IMG/VR virus record: IMGVR_UViG_3300044800_000040
Span: 4,691 to 68,690 of that record
Direction: 5' to 3' (one strand)
Source: a virus
DNA length: 64,000 nt
Part shown: positions 21,155-60,442 of the stretch, piece after piece
Layout: each line of letters opens with the position of its first letter
How positions within the stretch are numbered: the stretch's first letter is position 1
The notes under the pieces: model-generated
The model's database searches: none
The model's input: the letters and a program-made list of their open reading frames with translations, nothing else
Told to the model about the DNA's origin: nothing
Program-made: the position numbers and the translations under genes

Positions 21155-22465
21155 CTACTGCTCCTCAACGGCCATGATGTAGTCGAGGATGGCCTCGCTG
21201 AACCCGTCCACGTGGTGCCAGGGACCGTAGCCGACGCCGTGGGTGTTGGTCGCCACGTTGACCATGTAGTTGCGGCCGCACTTGGGCGAGCCCACCACGC
21301 CATGACTCTGCTCGTCGGTGAACACGATCAGGCGGTCCCAGGTGGTGTGCTGCTCGAGCCCGCCCAGCGCGGTACCGAGGTACGTGCCCTCGTGCGACTG
21401 GCTCTGCACGATGCTGTCACGCAGCGCGAAGCCCCGGCGCGGGGGCACCTGGCAGAGCTGCATCGAGAACGTGTAGACCTCGATGTCGTCGGACAGCTCG
21501 CGGGCCAGCACAGCCAGGCCGCAGGCGGCATCCATGCGGGTCATGTCGCTCTTGTTGCTGATGGGGTGGTCCATGGAGCCGGACACGTCGATCAGCAGCA
21601 CAGTCTTGCCCGGCAGGTTGACCTTGTCGCCCAGGCAGCGGTACATAGCCTGCTCCAACTCGGGCTCCAGGGCCGGGGCGTAGCGGGCAGCGGCGATGAA
21701 GCGGAAGGGCAGCACACGCTCGGTCTTCATGTTGAGCAAGCCCTGGCGGATGGCGTCGCGGTCGACCCCGGCCTGTTCCATGTTGCGGAGGTTGCGCAGC
21801 AGGGCGAGCGCCCCCAGCTTGCCCTCGGACAGCAGGCGCGTCCAGATGGCCTTCTTGTCGGTACCGCCAGCGGACAGGGCCACTTCCCAGGTGTCGGGGA
21901 TGGCGAGCTGCCCGTCGACGAGGCGCTTCCAGACTTCCGCCTGCACAGCGTCCTTGGGTTTGGCATGGACGAGGAACAGCACGTCACGCAGCTTGACCGC
22001 GTTGTCTCGGTTGTACTTGGCCAGGGCGTACTCGTCGAACTTGGTGAACGCACGCGCAAGGCCCTTCTTGACCTGGGCGGACAGCTTGCACCGTCCAGCC
22101 GACCAGTACAGCGACAGGAACTCGGTGAGCTCGTCAGGGCGCTGGATGATCTGTGCCAGGGTGTCCGCCACCAGGCCCTTGTGATTGGGCAGGTAGGCCA
22201 TGATGCGCGCAATCATCAACGGAGCGTGACGCAGCTTCATCTTGGTACGGGCTTCCACCGCCATGCTCTGCACAGTCACCGGGTCGACCAGGGGCACGAG
22301 CTTGGCAAGGCGTTCGGTGATGGACAGACCGTCCTCGTAGAAGGTGTTCTCCCACAACATGCAGGCCATCAGCGTCCGGCGCAGTTGCAGCTCGGCATTG
22401 ATGCGCTTGGCGGGGGCTCCTTCGTGGGTGCGGATGGGCTGGACGGGGAGGTTGGTGCGGGCCAT
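21155..22465 (-). CDS. rsr: TROVE-domain Ro60/Rsr RNA-binding protein with vWA domain
   Basis: THEG, FYEDG, IQRPDEL, FDEYALAKY, HAKP, TWE, ALLRNLRN, LPFRF, DVSGSM, TDEQ; AAGGAG RBS before ATG 22465. Confidence 0.93.
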   Translation of the reverse strand: MARTNLPVQPIRTHEGAPAKRINAELQLRRTLMACMLWENTFYEDGLSITERLAKLVPLVDPVTVQSMAVEARTKMKLRHAPLMIARIMAYLPNHKGLVADTLAQIIQRPDELTEFLSLYWSAGRCKLSAQVKKGLARAFTKFDEYALAKYNRDNAVKLRDVLFLVHAKPKDAVQAEVWKRLVDGQLAIPDTWEVALSAGGTDKKAIWTRLLSEGKLGALALLRNLRNMEQAGVDRDAIRQGLLNMKTERVLPFRFIAAARYAPALEPELEQAMYRCLGDKVNLPGKTVLLIDVSGSMDHPISNKSDMTRMDAACGLAVLARELSDDIEVYTFSMQLCQVPPRRGFALRDSIVQSQSHEGTYLGTALGGLEQHTTWDRLIVFTDEQSHGVVGSPKCGRNYMVNVATNTHGVGYGPWHHVDGFSEAILDYIMAVEEQ

Positions 22466-22486
22466 AGCAGGCTCCTTGGGTAAGAG

Positions 22487-22549
22487 GTCCGGGAACAGGC
22501 GGCGGCAGTGATGTTCTAGCACGAAGTAACTGCAACCTTCACCACGGAA
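22487..22549 (-). ncRNA. Y-RNA-like unit D (minimal)
   Basis: uccg-UGGUGAAG-stem-UUACUUC-loop-stem-CGCCUGUUCC-cgga. Confidence 0.75.
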
Positions 22550-22559
22550 CACAAAGGCA

Positions 22560-22674
22560 AGATCTGGGAACGAGCGGGGTGTGAGTACCGGCTTTCGCCG
22601 GGTGCGGTCGTCTCCGAGCCGCGACGCTCCCGAAGGAGCGGGCAGATGTATCACAACCCTATCACCACAGATCT
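22560..22674 (-). ncRNA. Y-RNA-like unit C (three-hairpin domain)
   Basis: agaucug-UGGUGAUA...AUACAUC...UUCG and GAAA hairpins...CGCUCGUUCC-cagaucu. Confidence 0.8.
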
Positions 22675-22684
22675 GAAAGAGCGA

Positions 22685-22817
22685 AGTCGGGGAACAAGCG
22701 ATCAAGGCATTTTTCCAGCTGCTCTACCAGTTGAGCTACGGGTGCCGAAGCTCCCGACGGGATTTGAACCCGTGACCAACTGTTCCGATGAAGTAGCCCT
22801 GGTCTTCACCACCGACT
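22685..22817 (-). ncRNA. YrlA-like Y RNA with permuted tRNA-like domain (unit B)
   Basis: T arm ACGGG-UUCAAAU-CCCGU, then closed acceptor-like hairpin, then D arm UAGCUCAACUGGUAGAGCA, inside a UGGUGAAG/CGCUUGUUCC stem. Confidence 0.88.
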
Positions 22818-51522: not shown

Positions 51523-52446
51523 TCACTTCAACAGGCCGAGCTCTCGCATGAGGGTGTTGGCCTCCCCTTGGCTCATCTCGGCCGGGTCACCATCGCTCAA
51601 GGTCAGCAGCTCCACGTCCACACCGAGGGCTGCCAGGTTCGCACCAAGCTGTCGGGCCTGGGCCTGTGCCTGGACCTCGGAGTCGTACAGCACGAAGACC
51701 CGCTTCATGCGTGTCAGCAGGGCAACCTGGGGCGGACGGAACTTGATCCCGAACGTGGCGCAGGCACCAGGGCCAAGTCGCCAGGCATCGGTGATGCCCT
51801 CAACCACAAGGCAAACGTCCCGGCGGATGAGGTGCAGGCCATAGAGCGTGTCGTGGTGATCCATGACCTCGCGTTCCTTGGGGCACGCCTTGTAGCGGAG
51901 GTCACTCTTGCCGGTGACATCCCGGCCCTGGTAGCTCACCAGCTCGTCACCGTGGTAGATGGGTGCGATGAGCCGGAACTTGTAATCACCGATGGGCCCG
52001 GTCGCACAGACCTTCCAGACCTCGGCCAGATAGTCCGGGTCGAACCCCCTGGCTTCGCAGTAGCGGCGGTGAAGTGTCGCATTTGGGTCGCCCAGGGGCA
52101 TGGTACCAGGGGGAAGGGCCAGTTCCGCAGCGGAGGCACCCCTCCTGGCTGCGCGTATTTCACGCCTAGCAGGGCGTACAACGCATTTGCGCACCAGACC
52201 CCGTGCCTGACCCTCGGGAATGCGCAAAAGCGCAGCGACAACGCGCCAGGCAGGCTTCCAGCCACAGCGCCAGCACGAGAAGAAGTGGTCGTCAAAACAC
52301 CATCCCAGATGATAGTCTTTTGACCCCGAACAGAACGGGCAATGAATCTGTACCCAACCAGGCACACAGTGTTTATTTCCACTTGTGATATATTGGATGC
52401 CGTGCTCCCTGTAAAATCGAAGAGCGTCGAACGCTATCTTCTTCAC
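51523..52446 (-). CDS. DNA primase
   Basis: CPFC...CWRC zinc finger; YQGR, VEGITDA, YDSE, DP Toprim motifs. Confidence 0.9.
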   Translation of the reverse strand: MKKIAFDALRFYREHGIQYITSGNKHCVPGWVQIHCPFCSGSKDYHLGWCFDDHFFSCWRCGWKPAWRVVAALLRIPEGQARGLVRKCVVRPARREIRAARRGASAAELALPPGTMPLGDPNATLHRRYCEARGFDPDYLAEVWKVCATGPIGDYKFRLIAPIYHGDELVSYQGRDVTGKSDLRYKACPKEREVMDHHDTLYGLHLIRRDVCLVVEGITDAWRLGPGACATFGIKFRPPQVALLTRMKRVFVLYDSEVQAQAQARQLGANLAALGVDVELLTLSDGDPAEMSQGEANTLMRELGLLK

Positions 52447-52781
52447 AGCACAAGCCCCGCGCGAATGGCCCCCCGGACTTGTGCCCGGTGTCGGAGCAGA
52501 TTGACCAGTTTCGGGTGCATCAAGCTGTACAGCATCAGTTGAGCCACTTCTTGCTTGGCCGCAAAGTTGTTCTCACTGTCTTCGTATGGGAACGGGTCCT
52601 CCCCCGTGTCCCAGATGAAGTGGAGGGTGCTCGGCGCGGGTAAGAAGATAAGCTCGGCAATGGTGGCACGCGCCTCTCCAGAGAGGAAGATCAGACGACG
52701 CAGTTCTTTGACGCACTCACGCAGCCGCTGTCTTTTTTGGTGACGTATTTCGACGGGGATTGATGTCTGGAGTGGGTTCAT
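52443..52781 (-). CDS. Hypothetical protein
   Basis: AGGAG RBS; coupled to primase. Confidence 0.55.
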   Translation of the reverse strand: MNPLQTSIPVEIRHQKRQRLRECVKELRRLIFLSGEARATIAELIFLPAPSTLHFIWDTGEDPFPYEDSENNFAAKQEVAQLMLYSLMHPKLVNLLRHRAQVRGAIRAGLVL

Positions 52782-52804
52782 GCTGGATCTCCTGTTGACT
52801 GGGC

Positions 52805-52838
52805 AAAAGAAAAGGGCAGCCCCGCAAGGACTGCCCTT
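52805..52838 (-). terminator. Intrinsic terminator
   Basis: aagggcagtcc-ttgc-ggggctgccctt followed by ttctttt. Confidence 0.75.
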
Positions 52839-52840
52839 GG

Positions 52841-52849
52841 ATTATACGC
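52841..52849 (-). promoter_or_regulatory. GCGTATAAT promoter motif abutting the terminator
   Basis: Exact motif. Confidence 0.68.
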
Positions 52850-53544
52850 TACGCCGTGAGAAAAGAGCGAAGGAGGTTTTGCGCGATGGTGCCCGTGTTT
52901 GCTTTGCCGTGGCAACTGGCGCACAGGCAGATGAGGTTGGTGGGGGTGTTGTTGTCCTTGTCGAAGTCGATGTGGTGTACATCCATCTTGCCATGAGTTC
53001 GGGAGCAGAATCGACAGGCGTTCCCATCGCGCTGCCGGATCGCTTGGCGTAGCCAACGTGTCCATTCTTTCCCGTATGGCAGGGAGCTCACTCCACCCTG
53101 CCAGTTGGGACCATCCTCCCCGCGGAACTTGCCGGTGTTTGCTTCGCGCAAACGCTCCTTCGTTGCTTGTGTGTGCTGCTTGCCGAGGAATGCGTTTGGG
53201 TTGTTCTGGTGCCATTCTTTCAGGGTGCGTGAGATTGCTTCGCGCTGATCTTGTGGTATTTGTTTGCCCTTGCTGGAGGCGGATATCTTGTCCCCCCAAG
53301 TGATCATGCGCCCCATCATTCCCCGCGAAATCTTCTGACGGGTTTCCGCGGATACGCAGTACCCCTGTTCCTTGTGCAGACGCTCTCGTTCGGCAGCCGC
53401 CACCGACATTTTTTTCTTGGCCTGTTCGGTATGTCGATGACCAGTGGAGGCCACTCGGCGGGCCTCCACTTCTTCCGGATGCTCCGCTAGTCTCTTCTTC
53501 ATGCTGGCGGAGATCTTGGCGCGGCGTTGTTCTTCGTTGGTCAC
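52849..53544 (-). CDS. Free-standing HNH homing endonuclease with NUMOD3-like repeats
   Basis: HTEQAKKKMS, RDGNACRFC, VHHIDFDKDNN..NLICLCASCH. Confidence 0.88.
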   Translation of the reverse strand: MTNEEQRRAKISASMKKRLAEHPEEVEARRVASTGHRHTEQAKKKMSVAAAERERLHKEQGYCVSAETRQKISRGMMGRMITWGDKISASSKGKQIPQDQREAISRTLKEWHQNNPNAFLGKQHTQATKERLREANTGKFRGEDGPNWQGGVSSLPYGKEWTRWLRQAIRQRDGNACRFCSRTHGKMDVHHIDFDKDNNTPTNLICLCASCHGKANTGTIAQNLLRSFLTA

Positions 53545-53577
53545 TGGTGGGTTCCTCCTGAAGTATCTTCCGCCTGA

Positions 53578-56500
53578 TCATACTCCCCTCTTTCGGCCGA
53601 TACAAGAGACGAGCTCTGCGAGGACCCCTCCTGTGGTATTCCCAACCCCATCCATATTGGACACACCGTCCAGCGCCATGCCAATCACTTGCGCCTTGTT
53701 GTGGAGAAGGGTTGTGATGTCGTCGTCGAGGGTGTCTTGGGCCACAAGGCAGTACGAGCTGACGCTCTGCGACTCCTGTCCAATTCGGAGAACGCGGTCT
53801 TCCGCTTGGAGGAGTTCCGATGGGGTCCAAGGAAACTCCACGAAGCAGGTCGAGTCCGCCGCGGTCAGGGTGATTGCCACACCAGCCGCCTTGAGCCCGC
53901 CGATGAAGATCCGGCAGGTCGGGTCCTCCTGGAAGCGGTCGATGAACGCCTGCTTCATCATCGGCGGGGTGCGACCGTCCAGGCGCACAGGGTTGAACTC
54001 TCCCAGAGCTTCGAAGAGCCCGTCCAGGATCTCATGGTGGTGTGCGAACACAACCAGCTTCTTGCCGCTGTCCATGTAGTCCTTGATCCACTCGATGGCT
54101 GCCTCGAGCTTGGCCTTGGCAGACCAGAGCTTCAACTGGGTGATCTGCGCCAGCACCTGCCCAGGCTCCTTCTTGCCCGGTCTGGCGTTCTCCACCGCGA
54201 ACTCCGCCTCGAGCTTGGCATACGCCTTCAGTGCGGCCCGGGACAGTTCCAGGGGCACTACGCTGCGCTGCTTGATGGGCAGGTCCGGCATCACGTCCAC
54301 CTTGAGGCGGCGGATCATGACGGTCTTGGTCAGCAGGGCATGCAGCTCGTCCATGTTGGAAGCGCCGTTGAAGTTCCAGCCGTAGTCGGTGCGCTTGGCG
54401 TCGCAGAACCGCTGGGTGTAATCCCAGAAGCTCGGGAACACGTCGGGGCGCAGCATGTGCAGCACAGTCCAGAACTCGATGGGGCGGTTGATGATGGGGG
54501 TGCCGGAGGTGGCCACGATGTGCCGGCAACCTGTCGCCAGGCCGGGGTGCTTGATCTTCACCTTCTGCCAGGTGGCCTTGTCCATGATCTCTTCTTCGTA
54601 CCCGACGATGGCCCGGGTGCGAGCAGCCTTGGGGTTCTTGATCGCATGGCAGTTGTGAACCAGAACTTCGTTCGCGTAGTAACTTGGGTGTCCGCTGACC
54701 TGGAGATTATACACTGTCGCACCGTCTCCAGGACCTTCTCCGGGGTCTGTACAACCTCCCAATTCCAGAATCTCAACACGCACCACCCGAGGCTGGTCAG
54801 TACCTCTGTTTTCTTGGTGTCCAGCTTCTGTGCGCGCTTGGTCTGATGTCCCCGACCATCTATCTCGATTGCAATTTTCAGTCGGGGATGGGCAAGATCC
54901 ACTTTGTAGCAATGTGGGCACTCCGGACGATTGTTTGTGGGAATAGCCACCTCCGCTGACCAATGAAGTAGGCATGCCAGAAGTTTCTGTGGTTCTGTGA
55001 GTATCCCATTCCCTCCCCGCAGGCCCTTCCACGCCCGCAGGGTCCCGTTCCGTTCCTTGGTATCTCGCATCTTCTGAATGGTGGCAGGGGAGTGCATGGG
55101 GTTCTTCTTGGTCATGCGTATTGCCGCGTCTGGTCGGGGAGCACCTTTGAGTGCTTGTGACAACTTCCTGTTGCGTTCTGGTGAGAACACCCTTTTGCGA
55201 ATTTCCGGCTGGGACATCCTCCACTTCGCGGAGCAAGATGTTCCGCAAAAGCGTCTCGGCCGATTCTTTTTCTGTGCCGCAAGGAATGTCGCCCCGCACC
55301 ACTCGCATGTCATTTCCGTCATTTTCATTTATTGTTCCCTCCTTGCGGGACACTATACCAAGAATCTTCTCAGCAGGAAACAATAATCTTCCGGTGAGGT
55401 TTTCTGCGGCCACCCATCCAGATTCCGTAAAGATGGGGTGGTTGGGAGTGCATTCAAAGCTGGTACCATCGTCGAGTACAACACGGACAAGCGTGCTCAC
55501 TTTTTTCGAGAACACCTTCTGTACCTGTCCCATTCCGAACGCATTGTACACCCAGTCCCCCACCTCTATTTCCTCGATGGGGCGTGTGCCGTGTTCTGTG
55601 CGAATGGGGGTGCCAGCGGGGAAGCACTCGTCCAAGGCAATGACCTCGGGTGTGCCAACCTGGGCGACGATCTCGCACCACCAGTCGGAGAGGATGTCGT
55701 AGTTGACGATGATGATCACGCCCTTGCTCTCTCCCTTGGCCTTGCGCACGGTGTGGTCGAAGATGTTGTCGTTCTTGCCGGGCTTGCCACGCAGGGTGAT
55801 GACGTGCGGGTCGGACATCCACTGCAGGACATGGCGCTCCCAGGACGGCTTCGCCGTGGCAGGGCACACGATCACCGCGGGGCGAAGCTCCGGGTGCAGT
55901 TGCAGGTAGCCGATGATCTGGACGGTCTTGCCGAGACCCATGTCGTCGGCGAGCAGGGCGTTGCCGCCCATCTGGTCGAGGAAGGACACGCCCACGGTCT
56001 GGAAGGGGCGCAGCGTCTTCTGGAGGCCGGGGATCGCCAGGTCGGCGTTCTCACCCTTGGTGAAGGAGGCGAACCAGTCCTGCAGCGCCTTGCCCCGGAG
56101 TTCGAAGCCCAGGTTGCGCAGACCCTCGACGGCCTGGAACGACTGGGGCAGCGTCCAGAGCTTGCGGTCGGGGCACCAGCGGCGGCCCGGCAGATTCTTC
56201 ACGTCGGCGACGGTCTGGGGGTTGTAGGGGAAGCTCACCAGAAGCGTATTGCCCTCGAGGGTGACGAACTTGGTCGGGCTCTGGCTGCTGGCTGCACTCG
56301 CCTGGGGCACGGCCACAGGGGGCACGGGGCGCTTGCCGTTGGGTCGGGGAGCCACCTCGGCGTGCATCAGCTGCTTGGCATACTTGTGCAGCTTGGGCTT
56401 GATGAAGGACATCTGCCGCTCGGTGAGGAAGCCCTTGTCCTTGTACCACTCGGCAATGCTGGTCAGGATGTCAGCGTCGATCATGTTGAAGCCAGCGCCG

Positions 56501-56643
56501 TTCTGGTGGGAGGTCGTCTGCATGTACTTCTCGTCCTCCTCCTGGCGATGGTAGAGGGTCATGAGCGCGCCGATGGCGAACTCGTCGTTGTTCTTGATCT
56601 GCTCGATGATGCGCGCGACTTGTTCTTGCTGTTCGGCCTTCAT
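53578..56643 (-). CDS. SNF2-family (HARP/SMARCAL1-like) helicase with intein
   Basis: LADDMGLGKT, DE|CHAIKN, SGTPIINRP, QAEDRVLRIGQ; AAGGAG RBS before MKAEQQ. Confidence 0.92.
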   Translation of the reverse strand: MKAEQQEQVARIIEQIKNNDEFAIGALMTLYHRQEEDEKYMQTTSHQNGAGFNMIDADILTSIAEWYKDKGFLTERQMSFIKPKLHKYAKQLMHAEVAPRPNGKRPVPPVAVPQASAASSQSPTKFVTLEGNTLLVSFPYNPQTVADVKNLPGRRWCPDRKLWTLPQSFQAVEGLRNLGFELRGKALQDWFASFTKGENADLAIPGLQKTLRPFQTVGVSFLDQMGGNALLADDMGLGKTVQIIGYLQLHPELRPAVIVCPATAKPSWERHVLQWMSDPHVITLRGKPGKNDNIFDHTVRKAKGESKGVIIIVNYDILSDWWCEIVAQVGTPEVIALDECFPAGTPIRTEHGTRPIEEIEVGDWVYNAFGMGQVQKVFSKKVSTLVRVVLDDGTSFECTPNHPIFTESGWVAAENLTGRLLFPAEKILGIVSRKEGTINENDGNDMRVVRGDIPCGTEKESAETLLRNILLREVEDVPAGNSQKGVLTRTQQEVVTSTQRCSPTRRGNTHDQEEPHALPCHHSEDARYQGTERDPAGVEGPAGREWDTHRTTETSGMPTSLVSGGGYSHKQSSGVPTLLQSGSCPSPTENCNRDRWSGTSDQARTEAGHQENRGTDQPRVVRVEILELGGCTDPGEGPGDGATVYNLQVSGHPSYYANEVLVHNCHAIKNPKAARTRAIVGYEEEIMDKATWQKVKIKHPGLATGCRHIVATSGTPIINRPIEFWTVLHMLRPDVFPSFWDYTQRFCDAKRTDYGWNFNGASNMDELHALLTKTVMIRRLKVDVMPDLPIKQRSVVPLELSRAALKAYAKLEAEFAVENARPGKKEPGQVLAQITQLKLWSAKAKLEAAIEWIKDYMDSGKKLVVFAHHHEILDGLFEALGEFNPVRLDGRTPPMMKQAFIDRFQEDPTCRIFIGGLKAAGVAITLTAADSTCFVEFPWTPSELLQAEDRVLRIGQESQSVSSYCLVAQDTLDDDITTLLHNKAQVIGMALDGVSNMDGVGNTTGGVLAELVSCIGRKRGV
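54558..55328 (-). CDS. DUF559/Vsr-like endonuclease in the +1 frame of the intein
   Basis: AAGGAGG RBS; CEWC..FCGTSC; YKVDLA..KIAIEIDGRGH..DTKK..GWCVLRFWN. Confidence 0.85.
   Translation of the reverse strand: MKMTEMTCEWCGATFLAAQKKNRPRRFCGTSCSAKWRMSQPEIRKRVFSPERNRKLSQALKGAPRPDAAIRMTKKNPMHSPATIQKMRDTKERNGTLRAWKGLRGGNGILTEPQKLLACLLHWSAEVAIPTNNRPECPHCYKVDLAHPRLKIAIEIDGRGHQTKRAQKLDTKKTEVLTSLGWCVLRFWNWEVVQTPEKVLETVRQCIISRSADTQVTTRTKFWFTTAMRSRTPRLLAPGPSSGTKKRSWTRPPGRR
54652..55626 (-). mobile_element. Intein (325 aa) in helicase Walker B
   Basis: CFPAGT...CTPNHPIF...VYNLQVSGHPSYYANEVLVHN followed by Cys. Confidence 0.92.
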
Positions 56644-56663
56644 GTCTTGCTCCTTGGTTGATG

Positions 56664-56729
56664 TTGGGTGCCTCATCAGGCCAGGAGACCCAAGCTCCTA
56701 GCGACAGGGGGCGCACCCCCTGTTTCGGC
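56664..56729 (-). ncRNA. Type II hammerhead ribozyme
   Basis: gcc-GAAA-caggggg/ccccctg-UC-gctaggag/ctcctggc-CUGAUGA-ggc; loop uugggu can pair with tail acccaa. Confidence 0.92.
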
Positions 56730-57227
56730 TTACCTTGCCAGCGTCCGTGCAATGCTCCAGAGCCCCACGTGCCCGCGCTTGAGCACTTCAAGCAGTGCCC
56801 GCTTCTCCTCCAAGTAGGTCTGGGCGAAGGCCGGATCGAAGGCGATGATGGTCTTTGTGTTGTCGATCAGGTCGGCCAGTTTGATCGTCTGCGCCTGGGG
56901 CGAGGCCAGAGCCAAGTGCTCCAAGTCCAGGCGCTTGCGGACGGCTCGGTTGCCGTCGGTTGGCTTGGACACGTCGGTGACGGCCATGACGAGGTCAGTC
57001 ACTCGCGAGCCAAAGGTTGCTGCGAGGTAGCAGGGATCGACCCCGCAGTCCTCCACCACGTCGTGCAGGAGCGCGGCTGCGATGCTGTAGTCGTCCGCCC
57101 CGGTGGAGGCCACCAGGCCAGCTACGGCGAAGGGATGCACGATGTAGGGCTCCTGCGTGTACTTGCGCTTCTGTCCGTCATGGGCGCGCAGGGCGATGTC
57201 CATGGCCTGTATGATGATCATGCTCAT
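56730..57227 (-). CDS. RelA/SpoT-type HD hydrolase (small alarmone hydrolase-like)
   Basis: AHDGQKRK..EPYIVHP, ALLHDVVED, IKLADLIDN. Confidence 0.85.
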   Translation of the reverse strand: MSMIIIQAMDIALRAHDGQKRKYTQEPYIVHPFAVAGLVASTGADDYSIAAALLHDVVEDCGVDPCYLAATFGSRVTDLVMAVTDVSKPTDGNRAVRKRLDLEHLALASPQAQTIKLADLIDNTKTIIAFDPAFAQTYLEEKRALLEVLKRGHVGLWSIARTLAR

Positions 57228-57231
57228 GTTG

Positions 57232-57549
57232 TTACCTCACCAGCCCGATGAGCTGGTCGTTCTTGTCGATGTACATGGCGCTGTAATAGCCGCTGACGGT
57301 ACGCAACCAGTGCAGGGAGTTGTCGAGGTTGCTGCGGTACTGCCGCTCCACCCTGGCCATGATCTTGGACAGCTTGATGCGGTAGTGCCCAGGGCGCACG
57401 CCGCTGTCCGCGGTGAGGTCTTTGTGCAGGTGTCCCCAGGCGTCCTGTGTCCAGCCGTTGCGCAGTGCCCAGGCGCGGACTTCATCGGGGGTCACCCGCT
57501 TCTTGTGCGGCCTGGGCTTGGGGTTGAGTCGCATTCGTTCGATGGTCAT
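57232..57549 (-). CDS. Hypothetical protein
   Basis: GGAGGA RBS. Confidence 0.6.
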   Translation of the reverse strand: MTIERMRLNPKPRPHKKRVTPDEVRAWALRNGWTQDAWGHLHKDLTADSGVRPGHYRIKLSKIMARVERQYRSNLDNSLHWLRTVSGYYSAMYIDKNDQLIGLVR

Positions 57550-57568
57550 GTTGTCCTCCTCCTTGATG

Positions 57569-58090
57569 TTACGCTGACGCCTGCAAGGCAGTGCGAACTT
57601 CCTCGAACACGGCCGTGCTCTTTTTGCGCGACCAGCCCAGGGTGCGCTTGAGGTGCTTGGCGATGGGGTGCAGGATGGTGCGGCCCTTCCTGGCATCGGC
57701 CATCGACGCGAAGACCTCGGCGGGGGTGTTGAAGACGATGCGCACAACGATCTGTGCCTCGTGGCTCATTCGCTGCAGGGTCAGGTTGAACATGGCCTGA
57801 TGCGCCGTCGAGTCGCCGCCGCTGGTCTGGTGGTAGTCCATCAGCTCCTCGGACATGGTGAGCGGCTTGCGGCGGTTGCCCTCGTTGTAGCAGTAGTCCG
57901 TGAGGTGGTTGCGCAGGGTGGTTACGAAGAGCGTGCTGAACTTGGCTTCGCGGTTGCGCTCCCACTGGGTGTACGTTTTCATGTAGGCGACCTGCGCCTC
58001 GCTCAACAGCTCGTCCATGTCGAAGCCGGTGGTCTTGGCAAACGAGAGGCAGCCGTGGACTGCCAGGCCCTTGATGTCTTCCCACTTCAT
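57569..58090 (-). CDS. Sigma70 region 2-like phage transcription factor
   Basis: DELLSEAQVAYMKTYTQWERNREAKFSTLFVTTLRNHLTDY. Confidence 0.7.
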   Translation of the reverse strand: MKWEDIKGLAVHGCLSFAKTTGFDMDELLSEAQVAYMKTYTQWERNREAKFSTLFVTTLRNHLTDYCYNEGNRRKPLTMSEELMDYHQTSGGDSTAHQAMFNLTLQRMSHEAQIVVRIVFNTPAEVFASMADARKGRTILHPIAKHLKRTLGWSRKKSTAVFEEVRTALQASA

Positions 58091-58207
58091 ACTGTCCCCC
58101 TCCTGAACTTCTGGTTGAAGATGAACGCCCAGTGGTGGGCGCACTGGCGCAGGTGAATGCGCAGACAGAACCAACGGGCCGCCAGCTCTCTACGAACGCG
58201 CCACATC

Positions 58208-58363
58208 TTACGCCTCCAGCTTGTTGATGGTCATGCTGTCGTTGCCGTGCTTGAGGCAGTGCGCGATGTAGCGCAGGGCTTCCCAAAGGCTGGAGAACTT
58301 CGGGCCGCCGCTGGTGCCTCGGTGCTGCACTTGGTACTTGCTCGGGCGCGGTTGTCTGCTCAT
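58208..58363 (-). CDS. Small early protein
   Basis: AAGGAG RBS downstream of a hammerhead. Confidence 0.6.
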   Translation of the reverse strand: MSRQPRPSKYQVQHRGTSGGPKFSSLWEALRYIAHCLKHGNDSMTINKLEA

Positions 58364-58382
58364 GATCTGCTCCTTGTTGATG

Positions 58383-58446
58383 TTGGTTGCCTCATCAGTG
58401 ACCGGGACCCGCCCGGCCAGACAGGGGCACATGCCCCTGTTTCGGC
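58383..58446 (-). ncRNA. Type II hammerhead ribozyme
   Basis: gcc-GAAA-caggggc/gcccctg-UC-tggccggg/cccggtca-CUGAUGA-ggc. Confidence 0.92.
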
Positions 58447-58821
58447 TTACTTGATCTGCGTGACCTCGACGATTTCCAGCATGGCGCCCTGCTCGCGGGC
58501 GATGATGAGCTGTTCCCAGGCAGCCTTACCACCCAGGTCACGGATGGTCTTGTTCGCCCAGTTGCGCCAGGTCGATGGACGGGAGCCACGGGGGTTGCAG
58601 ACCTCGTTGAAGTCGCGGCGTCCGGTGAGCTGGTTCAGGGACATGCGGGCGGCCTTCTCGGCGTTTGACCGTGAGCTGCTGAAGCCCGAGATGCTGTAGC
58701 GCATCGGGGAGTCAGCCCGGTCGCACTCGACGTAGTAGGCATGCGTGTACGGGTTGTGCGAGCTGCGGGTGATGATCTCCCCAGTCGAGAAGGTGGCGGT
58801 GAACTTGTGCTTGGCGGTCAT
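58447..58821 (-). CDS. Hypothetical early protein
   Basis: GGAGG RBS. Confidence 0.65.
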   Translation of the reverse strand: MTAKHKFTATFSTGEIITRSSHNPYTHAYYVECDRADSPMRYSISGFSSSRSNAEKAARMSLNQLTGRRDFNEVCNPRGSRPSTWRNWANKTIRDLGGKAAWEQLIIAREQGAMLEIVEVTQIK

Positions 58822-58831
58822 GTTGTGCCTC

Positions 58832-59074
58832 CTAGCTCTGCAGCTTGCCGTTGGGGTTGGTCAGGCTAAACGTGATCCACTTGGCGGTGGTGACGGACAG
58901 AAGCATGTCGGCCACCCAGTGCATAGGGATGACGTAGACGATAGTGTAGCGGCGGGCGGCGATGGCCAACTTGGCAGACTCCATCGCGGCCTTCTTGTTG
59001 TGGTAGGTAGTTTCGATCCGAGTCTCGGTGCCGTCGGGCAGTTCGTTGATGTACACGCAGTTGTGAATGGCCAT
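58832..59074 (-). CDS. Hypothetical early protein
   Basis: AAGGAG RBS downstream of a hammerhead. Confidence 0.6.
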   Translation of the reverse strand: MAIHNCVYINELPDGTETRIETTYHNKKAAMESAKLAIAARRYTIVYVIPMHWVADMLLSVTTAKWITFSLTNPNGKLQS

Positions 59075-59097
59075 CGTAAGCTCCTTTGTGGTGAATG

Positions 59098-59166
59098 TTG
59101 GTTGCCATCGTCAGGCCCATGCAACCTTGCATGAGCGACACCCACCAGTGAGGCGGGTGTTTCGGC
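59098..59166 (-). ncRNA. Type II hammerhead ribozyme (extra U after A9)
   Basis: gcc-GAAA-cacccgcc/ggtgggtg-UC-gctcatgc/gcatgggc-CUGACGA-u-ggc. Confidence 0.87.
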
Positions 59167-59680
59167 TTTGTTGTACGAGGCAGGAAGGCTACCCAGCCTG
59201 TGCTCTCGGTTGTTGGGGGTAGGCCGCTGGGCCTTGTGGTGCCGCTTCCTTCCTACCCCGGTGCCCCTTGAGGGCCTCTCTTGTCAGTTCCCGGCGGCCT
59301 CGTTCGGCCGCACCCCATATATAAAGCCGTGCAAGACGCATTACAAGGGGTCTGGAGGCATTTGTAGAAAATTCTTTTCCTAACAGAACAGGCACTTACG
59401 AAAAAATCTTGCGGCAACGTGCGGCAACTGCCGAGGAAGAACCCCAGATCCGCACGAAAACCCGGGATCACCAGTGGGCAAGCATGGGAAAGGAAATCCG
59501 CAGTGAGGAGGGGCACACCAGGGTGAAGCCTGGGCCTCGATCAGCACAGGACAGCCAGCCAGAGCAGGGCAGTGTCACACCAGTCGACACCAGCTGACAG
59601 CAAGGACACCAGACAAGGTCGGAAGCCACAGTGCGCAACGCTCTTGTCTCACCGAGGATGATCCGGTAGTTGTCTCTGTC

Positions 59681-60442
59681 ATGAGCTACTACCGACAGAA
59701 GACACCATCGACTGTGGCCACACCCCCACCCAGGAAGCGTATGAGCGCACCGGGGGCAGTACCTGCGTCACCAACGGCGGAGGCACGTGATCAGTTGCAG
59801 GAGGTACGGACAGCGGCCAGGGTGGACAGGCCAGCCTCCCCAGAGGACAAAGCCCTGCGCAAGCAGTTCGAGGCCAAGGTGAAGCTGAAGGGGAAGGGCG
59901 TCCAGCTCGAAGAGGATGAGGGCTACGCGCCGGAGCCGGGGACCAGACCCAGAAGCGGCAAGCCGAGCGACATGGAAAAGAAGTTCGGCTTCCGGACAGC
60001 CCTCGCACCCATCACCAAGATGCCCAGGGGCAGCAAGCACAGGGCGACCATCATGGCAGAGGAGCTCCTCGCTGGACAGGGCAAGCTCCTGATCCGGGTC
60101 ATGATCGAGCGCGCCCTGCTAGGCTGCCCCACCTGCCTCAAGCTCTGTGCCGAGCGTCTCATGCCCGCCAAGCGGGAATCAACCATCCAGATCAAGGTGC
60201 CCAAGATCGAAACCCTGGGTGACGTGCCAGCGGCAATGCAGGCAGTCGCCGATCAGGTGTTCAAGGGGGACATCACCCTGGGCGAAGGGCGCAATGCTGT
60301 CGCACTGTTGAGCGCCTGGGCCGACAGCATGGCTCTGGCCAACACTGGGGGTGCCAAGAGCAGCACGCCCGAGGAACTGGTCAAGCGGCTGCGCGAGGCG
60401 TCCAAAGCGATGGACGCCATGTCGTCACCAGACGAGGAGTAG
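59681..60442 (+). CDS. Putative terminase small subunit
   Basis: PRGSKHRAT...IERALLG...LKLCAERLMP; first gene of the block ending in TerL. Confidence 0.6.
   Translation: MSYYRQKTPSTVATPPPRKRMSAPGAVPASPTAEARDQLQEVRTAARVDRPASPEDKALRKQFEAKVKLKGKGVQLEEDEGYAPEPGTRPRSGKPSDMEKKFGFRTALAPITKMPRGSKHRATIMAEELLAGQGKLLIRVMIERALLGCPTCLKLCAERLMPAKRESTIQIKVPKIETLGDVPAAMQAVADQVFKGDITLGEGRNAVALLSAWADSMALANTGGAKSSTPEELVKRLREASKAMDAMSSPDEE

Follow-up and report, generated by a model that had tools for sequence, protein, structure and literature searches.

The minus strand of IMG/VR virus record IMGVR_UViG_3300044800_000040 carries three type II hammerhead ribozymes, here called HH1, HH2 and HH3, within 2.5 kb at the head of its replication gene block. 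The record is a complete genome of 68,690 bp with direct terminal repeats (DTR), and the window, by which we mean the whole 64,000-nucleotide stretch that was analyzed and in whose numbering all positions are given, spans bases 4691-68690 of it. We put the probability at roughly 80% that these are three functional type II hammerheads in a leftward transcript, which cut it after GUC and so divide it into blocks.

As the test of family membership we used the Rfam covariance model RF02276 (Hammerhead_II), which has a gathering score of 37 bits. This Infernal-type search bears out a preliminary description of the locus, which had named three type II hammerheads and whose predicted cut positions prove exact when the sequence is read.

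59096..59167, minus strand: HH1, type II hammerhead; RF02276 51.5 bits, E 1.1e-7; predicted cut 59137/59136 (after C59137)
58381..58447, minus strand: HH2, type II hammerhead; RF02276 45.3 bits, E 4.7e-6; predicted cut 58420/58419
56662..56730, minus strand: HH3, type II hammerhead; RF02276 40.0 bits; predicted cut 56703/56702

HH3 was dropped by the speed filters in two whole-window scans and was recovered both in a 201-base scan and in a search of the whole genome (E 3.0e-8). In the 68,690-bp genome RF02276 has these three matches only, and neither Hammerhead_1 nor Hammerhead_3 matches anywhere in it at E up to 0.1. Pistol and twister-P1 also gave no match in the genome at E up to 0.1, and because the control genomes were silent as well these are weak blanks. 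By megablast, positions 52000-60000 have no match in the GenBank phage collection.

The catalytic cores are intact, as had been read from the sequence: GAAA and GUC are present in all three elements, and the CUGANGA segment is CUGACGA in HH1 and CUGAUGA in both HH2 and HH3. Stem II is an open helix of 3 bp, GCC/GGC in every copy as predicted, while stems I and III each end in a loop, which is the type II permutation. Both stem I and stem III measure 9, 8 and 8 bp in HH1, HH2 and HH3, respectively. Pairs were counted with the helices anchored at the core by a script; MAFFT alignments of the three elements misalign the stems. In this small sample of three sequences, both sides have changed with pairing kept at 8 of the 8 shared positions of stem I, and the 8 shared positions of stem III comprise four compensatory pairs, one changed on one side and three invariant pairs next to the core. 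The earlier statement that both stems covary fully thus holds for stem I and for only half of stem III. Folded in isolation, each element has the three-way junction as its minimum-energy structure. A further expectation, that a GGU in loop I could pair with a downstream ACC, is realized as a pseudoknot between loop I and the 3' tail, with 4 pairs in HH1 (GGUU/AACC), 3 in HH2 (GGU/ACC, where the family majority has 4 or more) and 6 in HH3 (UUGGGU/ACCCAA); one compensatory change, U-A to G-C, separates the pseudoknots of HH1 and HH3. At the level of sequence, all three elements have every hallmark of type II hammerheads.

Behind each ribozyme come a CA-rich spacer, the Shine-Dalgarno (SD) motif AAGGAG and an ATG, and this unit occurs three times in the genome, each time opening an open reading frame (ORF).

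59072..59095, minus strand: HH1 spacer, SD AAGGAG (59086-59081) and ATG (59074-59072), opening an 80-amino-acid ORF
58361..58380, minus strand: HH2 spacer, SD AAGGAG (58375-58370) and ATG (58363-58361), opening a 51-amino-acid ORF
56641..56661, minus strand: HH3 spacer, SD AAGGAG (56655-56650) and ATG (56643-56641), opening the SNF2-family helicase gene

From stem II to the ATG there are 29, 25 and 26 nt in HH1, HH2 and HH3. HH1 belongs to the 5' leader of the block's first gene. HH2 and HH3 begin at a stop codon, in agreement with the preliminary description, in that the last A of the upstream TAA (58449-58447 and 56732-56730) is base 1 of the ribozyme; in both, the stem III hairpin starts 8 nt past the stop codon. 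The leader that had been described as C/A-rich and leading to AAGGAG and ATG is present in all three copies, with the correction that its first eight bases (A[A/C]CCAACA) align to RF02276 model positions 59-66 and thus belong to the pseudoknot tail of the ribozyme itself. The leader motif ACATYMA..AGGAG has 4 matches in the window against 0.10 expected, and the fourth stands without a ribozyme, directly after the stop codon of a sigma-like gene and before a 105-amino-acid ORF.

57556..57569, minus strand: fourth leader copy, ACATCAAGGAGGAG (ACATCAA..AGGAG)

Either this copy is the ribosome-binding context usual for the phage, or it is a cassette from which the ribozyme was lost or in which it was never present. 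Thus, the idea of a reusable cassette of ribozyme and ribosome-binding site (RBS) is upheld by the threefold recurrence of the unit, and part of the similarity among the copies may reflect nothing more than the ribosome-binding context that this phage prefers.

The same geometry is seen across viral type II hammerheads. An exact-core pattern scan of IMG/VR returned at least 119 stretches; since AGCC...CTGATGAGGCA is fixed in the pattern, the sample covers the hammerhead family only in part. All counts that follow are among the matches listed, of which 111 of 138 were well formed (4 contiguous pairs in both stems) and 27 were dropped; 107 well-formed matches had enough flank, and 100 remained once near-duplicates had been removed. 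The ORFs were called mechanically, and AGCC sites on the same strands served as the control. In 56 of the 100 non-redundant matches the stop codon of an ORF of at least 40 codons overlaps ribozyme bases 1-2, compared with 194 of 3160 control sites (6%), and in 84 an SD-like motif with a start codon and an ORF of at least 40 codons follows within 60 nt, compared with 672 of 3160 (21%). The start codon lies a median of 25 nt from stem II. Before near-duplicate removal, the stop overlapped by 1-2 nt in 61 of 111 matches and fell within -2..+2 in 89, and loop I and the tail could form at least 5 pairs in 66 of the 111, compared with 359 of 2220 random tails. Furthermore, the leaders that follow the ribozymes are alike within single phages, such as those represented by loci L123, L175 and L205. 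These observations support the ribozyme-spacer-SD-start unit as a family-wide design in phage contigs and, together with the scores and folds given above, establish the family membership, fold and geometry of HH1, HH2 and HH3. No description of an overlap between stop codon and hammerhead was found in the literature; the term "stop codon" is absent from the available text of Perreault et al. (2011), whose supplements lay outside our search and may show the stop and SD geometry.

Two further results of these searches stand apart from the counts. In two related phages (records G063 and G057, loci L224 and L225), a hammerhead-like element at about 1501-1566 lies between a stop codon and an SD/ATG and reaches 29.5 bits, which is short of the cut-off; the core has CCGAUGA in place of CUGAUGA (U4 to C), and the element may be a weakened or dead copy. 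An exact pattern for the 3' half of the ribozyme plus the leader hit 4 loci in viral contigs, which we set aside as chance matches in unrelated A+T-rich sequence with neither a hammerhead upstream nor an Rfam match.

The elements conform closely to what has been published on this family. Perreault et al. described natural type II hammerheads with a pseudoknot between loop I and the 3' tail, and found that multiple hammerheads in prophages often flank single genes or short gene blocks (PMC3088659). They proposed that long phage transcripts are processed by hammerheads into mRNAs of gene or operon length, and showed that three tandem sets cleaved during in vitro transcription of polycistronic fragments of ~2 kb, that an Agrobacterium set cleaved in vivo as well, and that fast cleavage needs the pseudoknot (PMC3088659). 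Cleavage by three type II hammerheads near phage-like genes has likewise been reported in Desulfovibrio cells (PMC8782182). Core, topology, short open stem II, pseudoknot and phage context are all shared with the elements described here; an extra U after A9 in HH1 and the 3-pair pseudoknot of HH2 are the only differences. The triple prophage arrays of Agrobacterium tumefaciens, Azorhizobium caulinodans and Clostridium scindens are also alike, lying on one strand with spacings of a few hundred to ~1700 nt, as our three lie on the coding strand of a DTR phage. The flanked genes differ, being small ORFs, a sigma-like factor, an HD hydrolase and an SNF2 helicase in our case, and the prophage arrays have been cleaved in vitro, whereas ours comes from a complete DTR phage from a metagenome and is known from its sequence. 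As far as such comparison goes, the locus repeats a published arrangement and is a clean but ordinary example of it.

All three ribozymes sit between minus-strand ORFs of the block, whose G+C content at third codon positions (GC3) of 0.76-0.90 is a strong bias typical of real genes; for the ORFs that border the ribozyme-bearing gaps it is 0.84-0.90. From right to left, the region reads as follows.

59168..59680, no strand assigned: non-coding divergent region upstream of HH1, with an A+T-rich stretch at ~59430-59310
59074-58832, minus strand: 80-amino-acid ORF, GC3 0.88, directly 3' of the HH1 leader
58821-58447, minus strand: 124-amino-acid ORF, whose TAA stop (58449-58447) overlaps the first base of HH2
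58363-58208, minus strand: 51-amino-acid ORF, GC3 0.87, downstream of HH2
58206-58087, minus strand: 39-amino-acid ORF, next after the 51-amino-acid ORF
58090-57569, minus strand: 173-amino-acid sigma-like protein (phrog_351, 2.1e-6; weak Sigma70_r2 match below the cut-off)
57549-57232, minus strand: 105-amino-acid ORF between the sigma-like gene and the HD_4 gene
57227-56730, minus strand: 165-amino-acid HD_4 phosphohydrolase (PF13328, 7.3e-18), whose TAA (56732-56730) overlaps the first base of HH3
56643-53578, minus strand: 1021-amino-acid SNF2-family helicase, downstream of HH3

Left of the helicase gene follow a NUMOD3/HNH protein, a primase, a DnaB-like helicase, a sliding-clamp-like protein, a DNA polymerase and a clamp loader. 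In the non-coding divergent region we found no candidate ORF with the GC3 bias of real genes, and, since a divergent plus-strand gene adjoins it, the region probably serves the leftward block as promoter region. Within it, on the minus strand, lies a terminator-like hairpin with a T run (59412-59433). TTGTAA and TATATA, 17 nt apart at 59346-59318, agree with the consensus at 8 of 12 positions by eye count and are not claimed as a promoter.

Given this gene order, and the published behavior of the family, we infer cleavage, co-transcription and effects on mRNA stability and translation along the following lines. The leftward transcript would originate at about 59.2-59.7 kb, within the non-coding divergent region, and would run through the small ORFs, the sigma-like factor, the HD phosphohydrolase and the intein-bearing SNF2 helicase into the replication genes. 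Each ribozyme would fold during RNA synthesis, forming the stem I and stem III hairpins, the open 3-bp stem II and the pseudoknot between loop I and the 3' tail, and would then cleave after GUC. HH1 would strip the 5' leader, and cuts at HH2 and HH3 would leave three blocks, namely the 80- and 124-amino-acid ORFs, the 51-amino-acid ORF through the HD hydrolase, and the helicase with the genes after it. Hammerhead cleavage leaves a 2',3'-cyclic phosphate and a 5'-OH, and because of the type II topology these ends would sit in the stem III and stem I hairpins. The upstream product of HH2 or HH3 would therefore end 27 nt past the stop codon, in a G+C-rich stem III hairpin with the cyclic phosphate, and the downstream product would carry a 5'-OH at its head, on the stem I hairpin and pseudoknot, after which would come a short, unstructured spacer rich in C and A, then AAGGAG and the ATG. 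Since only the 3-bp stem II would join the products, the cut should be irreversible in practice. The likely effect would be a standard, context-independent, hairpin-protected 5' untranslated region (UTR) for the downstream gene, with decay and translation of neighboring blocks uncoupled.

Several observations weigh against this interpretation. A sigma-70 consensus scan of 56000-60200 returned 0 sites; with neither a promoter nor a terminator confidently assigned, co-transcription and early timing are therefore argued from gene order alone, as is the label "early operon" used in the preliminary description. Among the sequencing-run records searched, no RNA run with the locus was found, and the only run that contains it is a DNA run, which may be the source sample. 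When 30-35 nt of flank are included in the fold, the minimum-energy structures retain stems I and III but trade the 3-bp stem II for other weak pairings, a loss that is expected for a 3-bp helix dependent on a tertiary contact in the hammerhead family. The pseudoknot of HH2 has only 3 pairs, and in a construct of Perreault et al. shortening the pseudoknot from 6 to 4 pairs made cleavage ~20-fold slower (PMC3088659). In HH1 an additional U separates A9 from G10.1, with which stem II begins; an added U at this place is tolerated by a viroid hammerhead, which became even faster (review PMC3705267). The distribution of the ribozymes among relatives is also unfavorable. Of 16 viral records whose DNA polymerase is 32-49% identical to that of this phage, 3 have a Hammerhead_II match and 1 has a match above the cut-off, and no Hammerhead_II match was found in the 49 records searched (of 80 loci) that hold a homologue of the HD hydrolase. 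This patchy presence in relatives implies that the ribozymes are dispensable add-ons. A search with the sigma-like protein found no relatives. In the flanked folds of HH2 and HH3 we also noted a pairing of UGAUG in the core with CAUCA in the leader (5 pairs, 12- or 13-nt loop), which we judged insignificant.

Arrays of this kind are scattered among phages. In 50 records picked for at least one Hammerhead_II match, so that the counts describe hammerhead-bearing phages only, the matches listed at E up to 0.001 number one in 31 records, two in 10 and at least three in 9, with a maximum of 9 within 6 kb. Five of the multi-hammerhead records were compared with this phage, whose polymerase is absent from three of them and 27-34% identical in the other two. 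Judged by their distribution, the ribozymes are accessory and not a lineage trait.

The position of the upstream stop codon raises the question of whether translation has a part in cleavage. One notion is that the phage type II hammerhead is a fixed intercistronic module, in which cleavage is timed by termination of upstream translation and no unprotected untranslated RNA is left. The 8 nt from the stop to the start of stem III would roughly match how far a terminating ribosome reaches, the downstream SD would follow ~20 nt behind the pseudoknot, and HH2 and HH3 would be typical examples. We offer this tentatively and consider it unlikely. A related reading holds that the ribozymes are gated by translation instead of being constitutive, the fate of each downstream block depending on ribosome traffic on the upstream cistron. 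A ribosome terminating at the overlapping stop would mask stem II's 5' strand together with the GAAA of the core. The upstream stop is built into HH2 and HH3, both of which start on the last A of a TAA, and the sharp family-wide peak in stop position (56 of 100, against 6% in the control) fits such gating. However, tight packing is common in phage genomes, and the adjacency could reflect compaction or the way in which the unit spreads; no credible ORF precedes HH1; and pseudoknotted hammerheads are fast, so that cleavage may finish within seconds after the ribosome leaves. On balance we hold translational gating to be unlikely.

The patchy occurrence described above would also suit selfish or neutral passengers, small ribozyme-RBS modules that spread by recombination and cleave without benefit to the phage: 3 of 16 polymerase relatives have a match, 1 of them above the cut-off, none of the 49 HD-hydrolase records has one, the flanking genes vary between phages (PMC3088659), and arrays occur in phages that are not closely related. 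Yet compensatory changes have kept the helices in three copies and the cores are intact, which argues that ribozyme activity is under selection, and the precise stop and SD geometry is retained in most of the 100 independent examples listed. We therefore regard this explanation as highly improbable. Hammerhead cleavage is reversible in principle. Paired cleavage and ligation that would excise or circularize the RNA between ribozymes (58419-56703 or 59136-58420) and give circular or spliced RNAs is nevertheless barely credible, since Perreault et al., who raised the possibility, report that they sought such products and detected none (PMC3088659), cut products joined by a 3-bp stem II alone should dissociate, and no RtcB ligase gene was found in the phage genome.

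For a transcript cut by three functional hammerheads, which we continue to prefer, several known systems offer parallels. The long early mRNA of phage T7 is cut between cistrons at RNase III sites, and these are a functional analogue of our elements; T7 needs a host protein enzyme, whereas the phage hammerhead RNA is predicted to cut itself. Engineered insulators of the RiboJ type have the same layout, with a self-cleaving hammerhead between the upstream sequence and the RBS that leaves a standard 5' UTR headed by a hairpin. RiboJ is built on a non-phage hammerhead, and the phage elements differ from it in being natural, of type II and in having their own stem I as the 5' hairpin. Upstream of an RBS, RiboJ, an engineered construct extended by a 23-nt hairpin (PMC6993053), increased protein 2-10-fold and transcript ~2-fold (PMC6206723), and it is stated in general terms that folding at the 3' end makes an RNA product more stable (PMC6993053). 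By analogy with RiboJ, terminal hairpins and non-phosphorylated ends may be protective here. A close natural parallel to HH3 in front of the SNF2 helicase gene is HHphage of haloviruses HF1/HF2, which precedes the start codon of an early helicase gene by 13 nt and has a mapped 5' end at most 3 nt from the cut site (PMC3088659). HHphage is a core-insertion variant from archaeal viruses and depends on high salt, whereas HH3 has a consensus core. Stabilization is thus a reasonable idea and not a new one, as processing of polycistronic transcripts into RNAs that differ in stability or translation efficiency has already been proposed in general terms (PMC6765202; PMC3088659), and a 2019 review regards the purpose of phage hammerheads as still unsettled (PMC6765202).

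Several other features of the genome deserve mention. The sigma-like protein and the HD_4 phosphohydrolase, both encoded between HH2 and HH3, may serve host takeover; the HD_4 family (PF13328) includes (p)ppGpp hydrolases. The SNF2 helicase gene contains an intein-like insert of ~325 amino acids (window 55626-54652, minus strand), which starts with C after ...ALDE and ends ...VHN before CHAIKN, and whose matches to Hint and intein Pfam families are below their cut-offs; with boundaries at ALDE and CHAIKN, the insert would split the DE-CH motif of the helicase. Adjoining this intein-bearing gene, a 231-amino-acid ORF (52849-53544, minus strand) with a NUMOD3 motif and a weak HNH_3 match suggests a homing-endonuclease-like protein. 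Elsewhere in the window, the minus-strand stretch 21155-22811 includes the gene of a 516-amino-acid protein that combines a TROVE domain with a Ro60-type vWA region (PF05731, 1.2e-18; phrog_850). Directly upstream of it, a Y RNA-like (YrlA) match at 22685-22811 has 42.2 bits (E 5.7e-6), where the gathering score is 69; the part that aligns is tRNA-like in look, and ARAGORN calls no tRNA in the window. The two look like a phage-borne pair of Ro60 and Y RNA.

Our findings leave existing knowledge of phage hammerheads unchanged and add a clean example of a hammerhead array from a complete genome. The locus also provides a natural test set, with pseudoknots of 3, 4 and 6 pairs, one core-adjacent insertion, downstream genes of very different size and a leader copy without a ribozyme, for the question of whether the hammerheads of phages do no more than cut or control the stability and translation of mRNA. 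The family-wide geometry, with stop overlap in 56% against 6% and an SD and start codon within 60 nt in 84% against 21% among the matches listed, sharpens this question of cutting or regulating.

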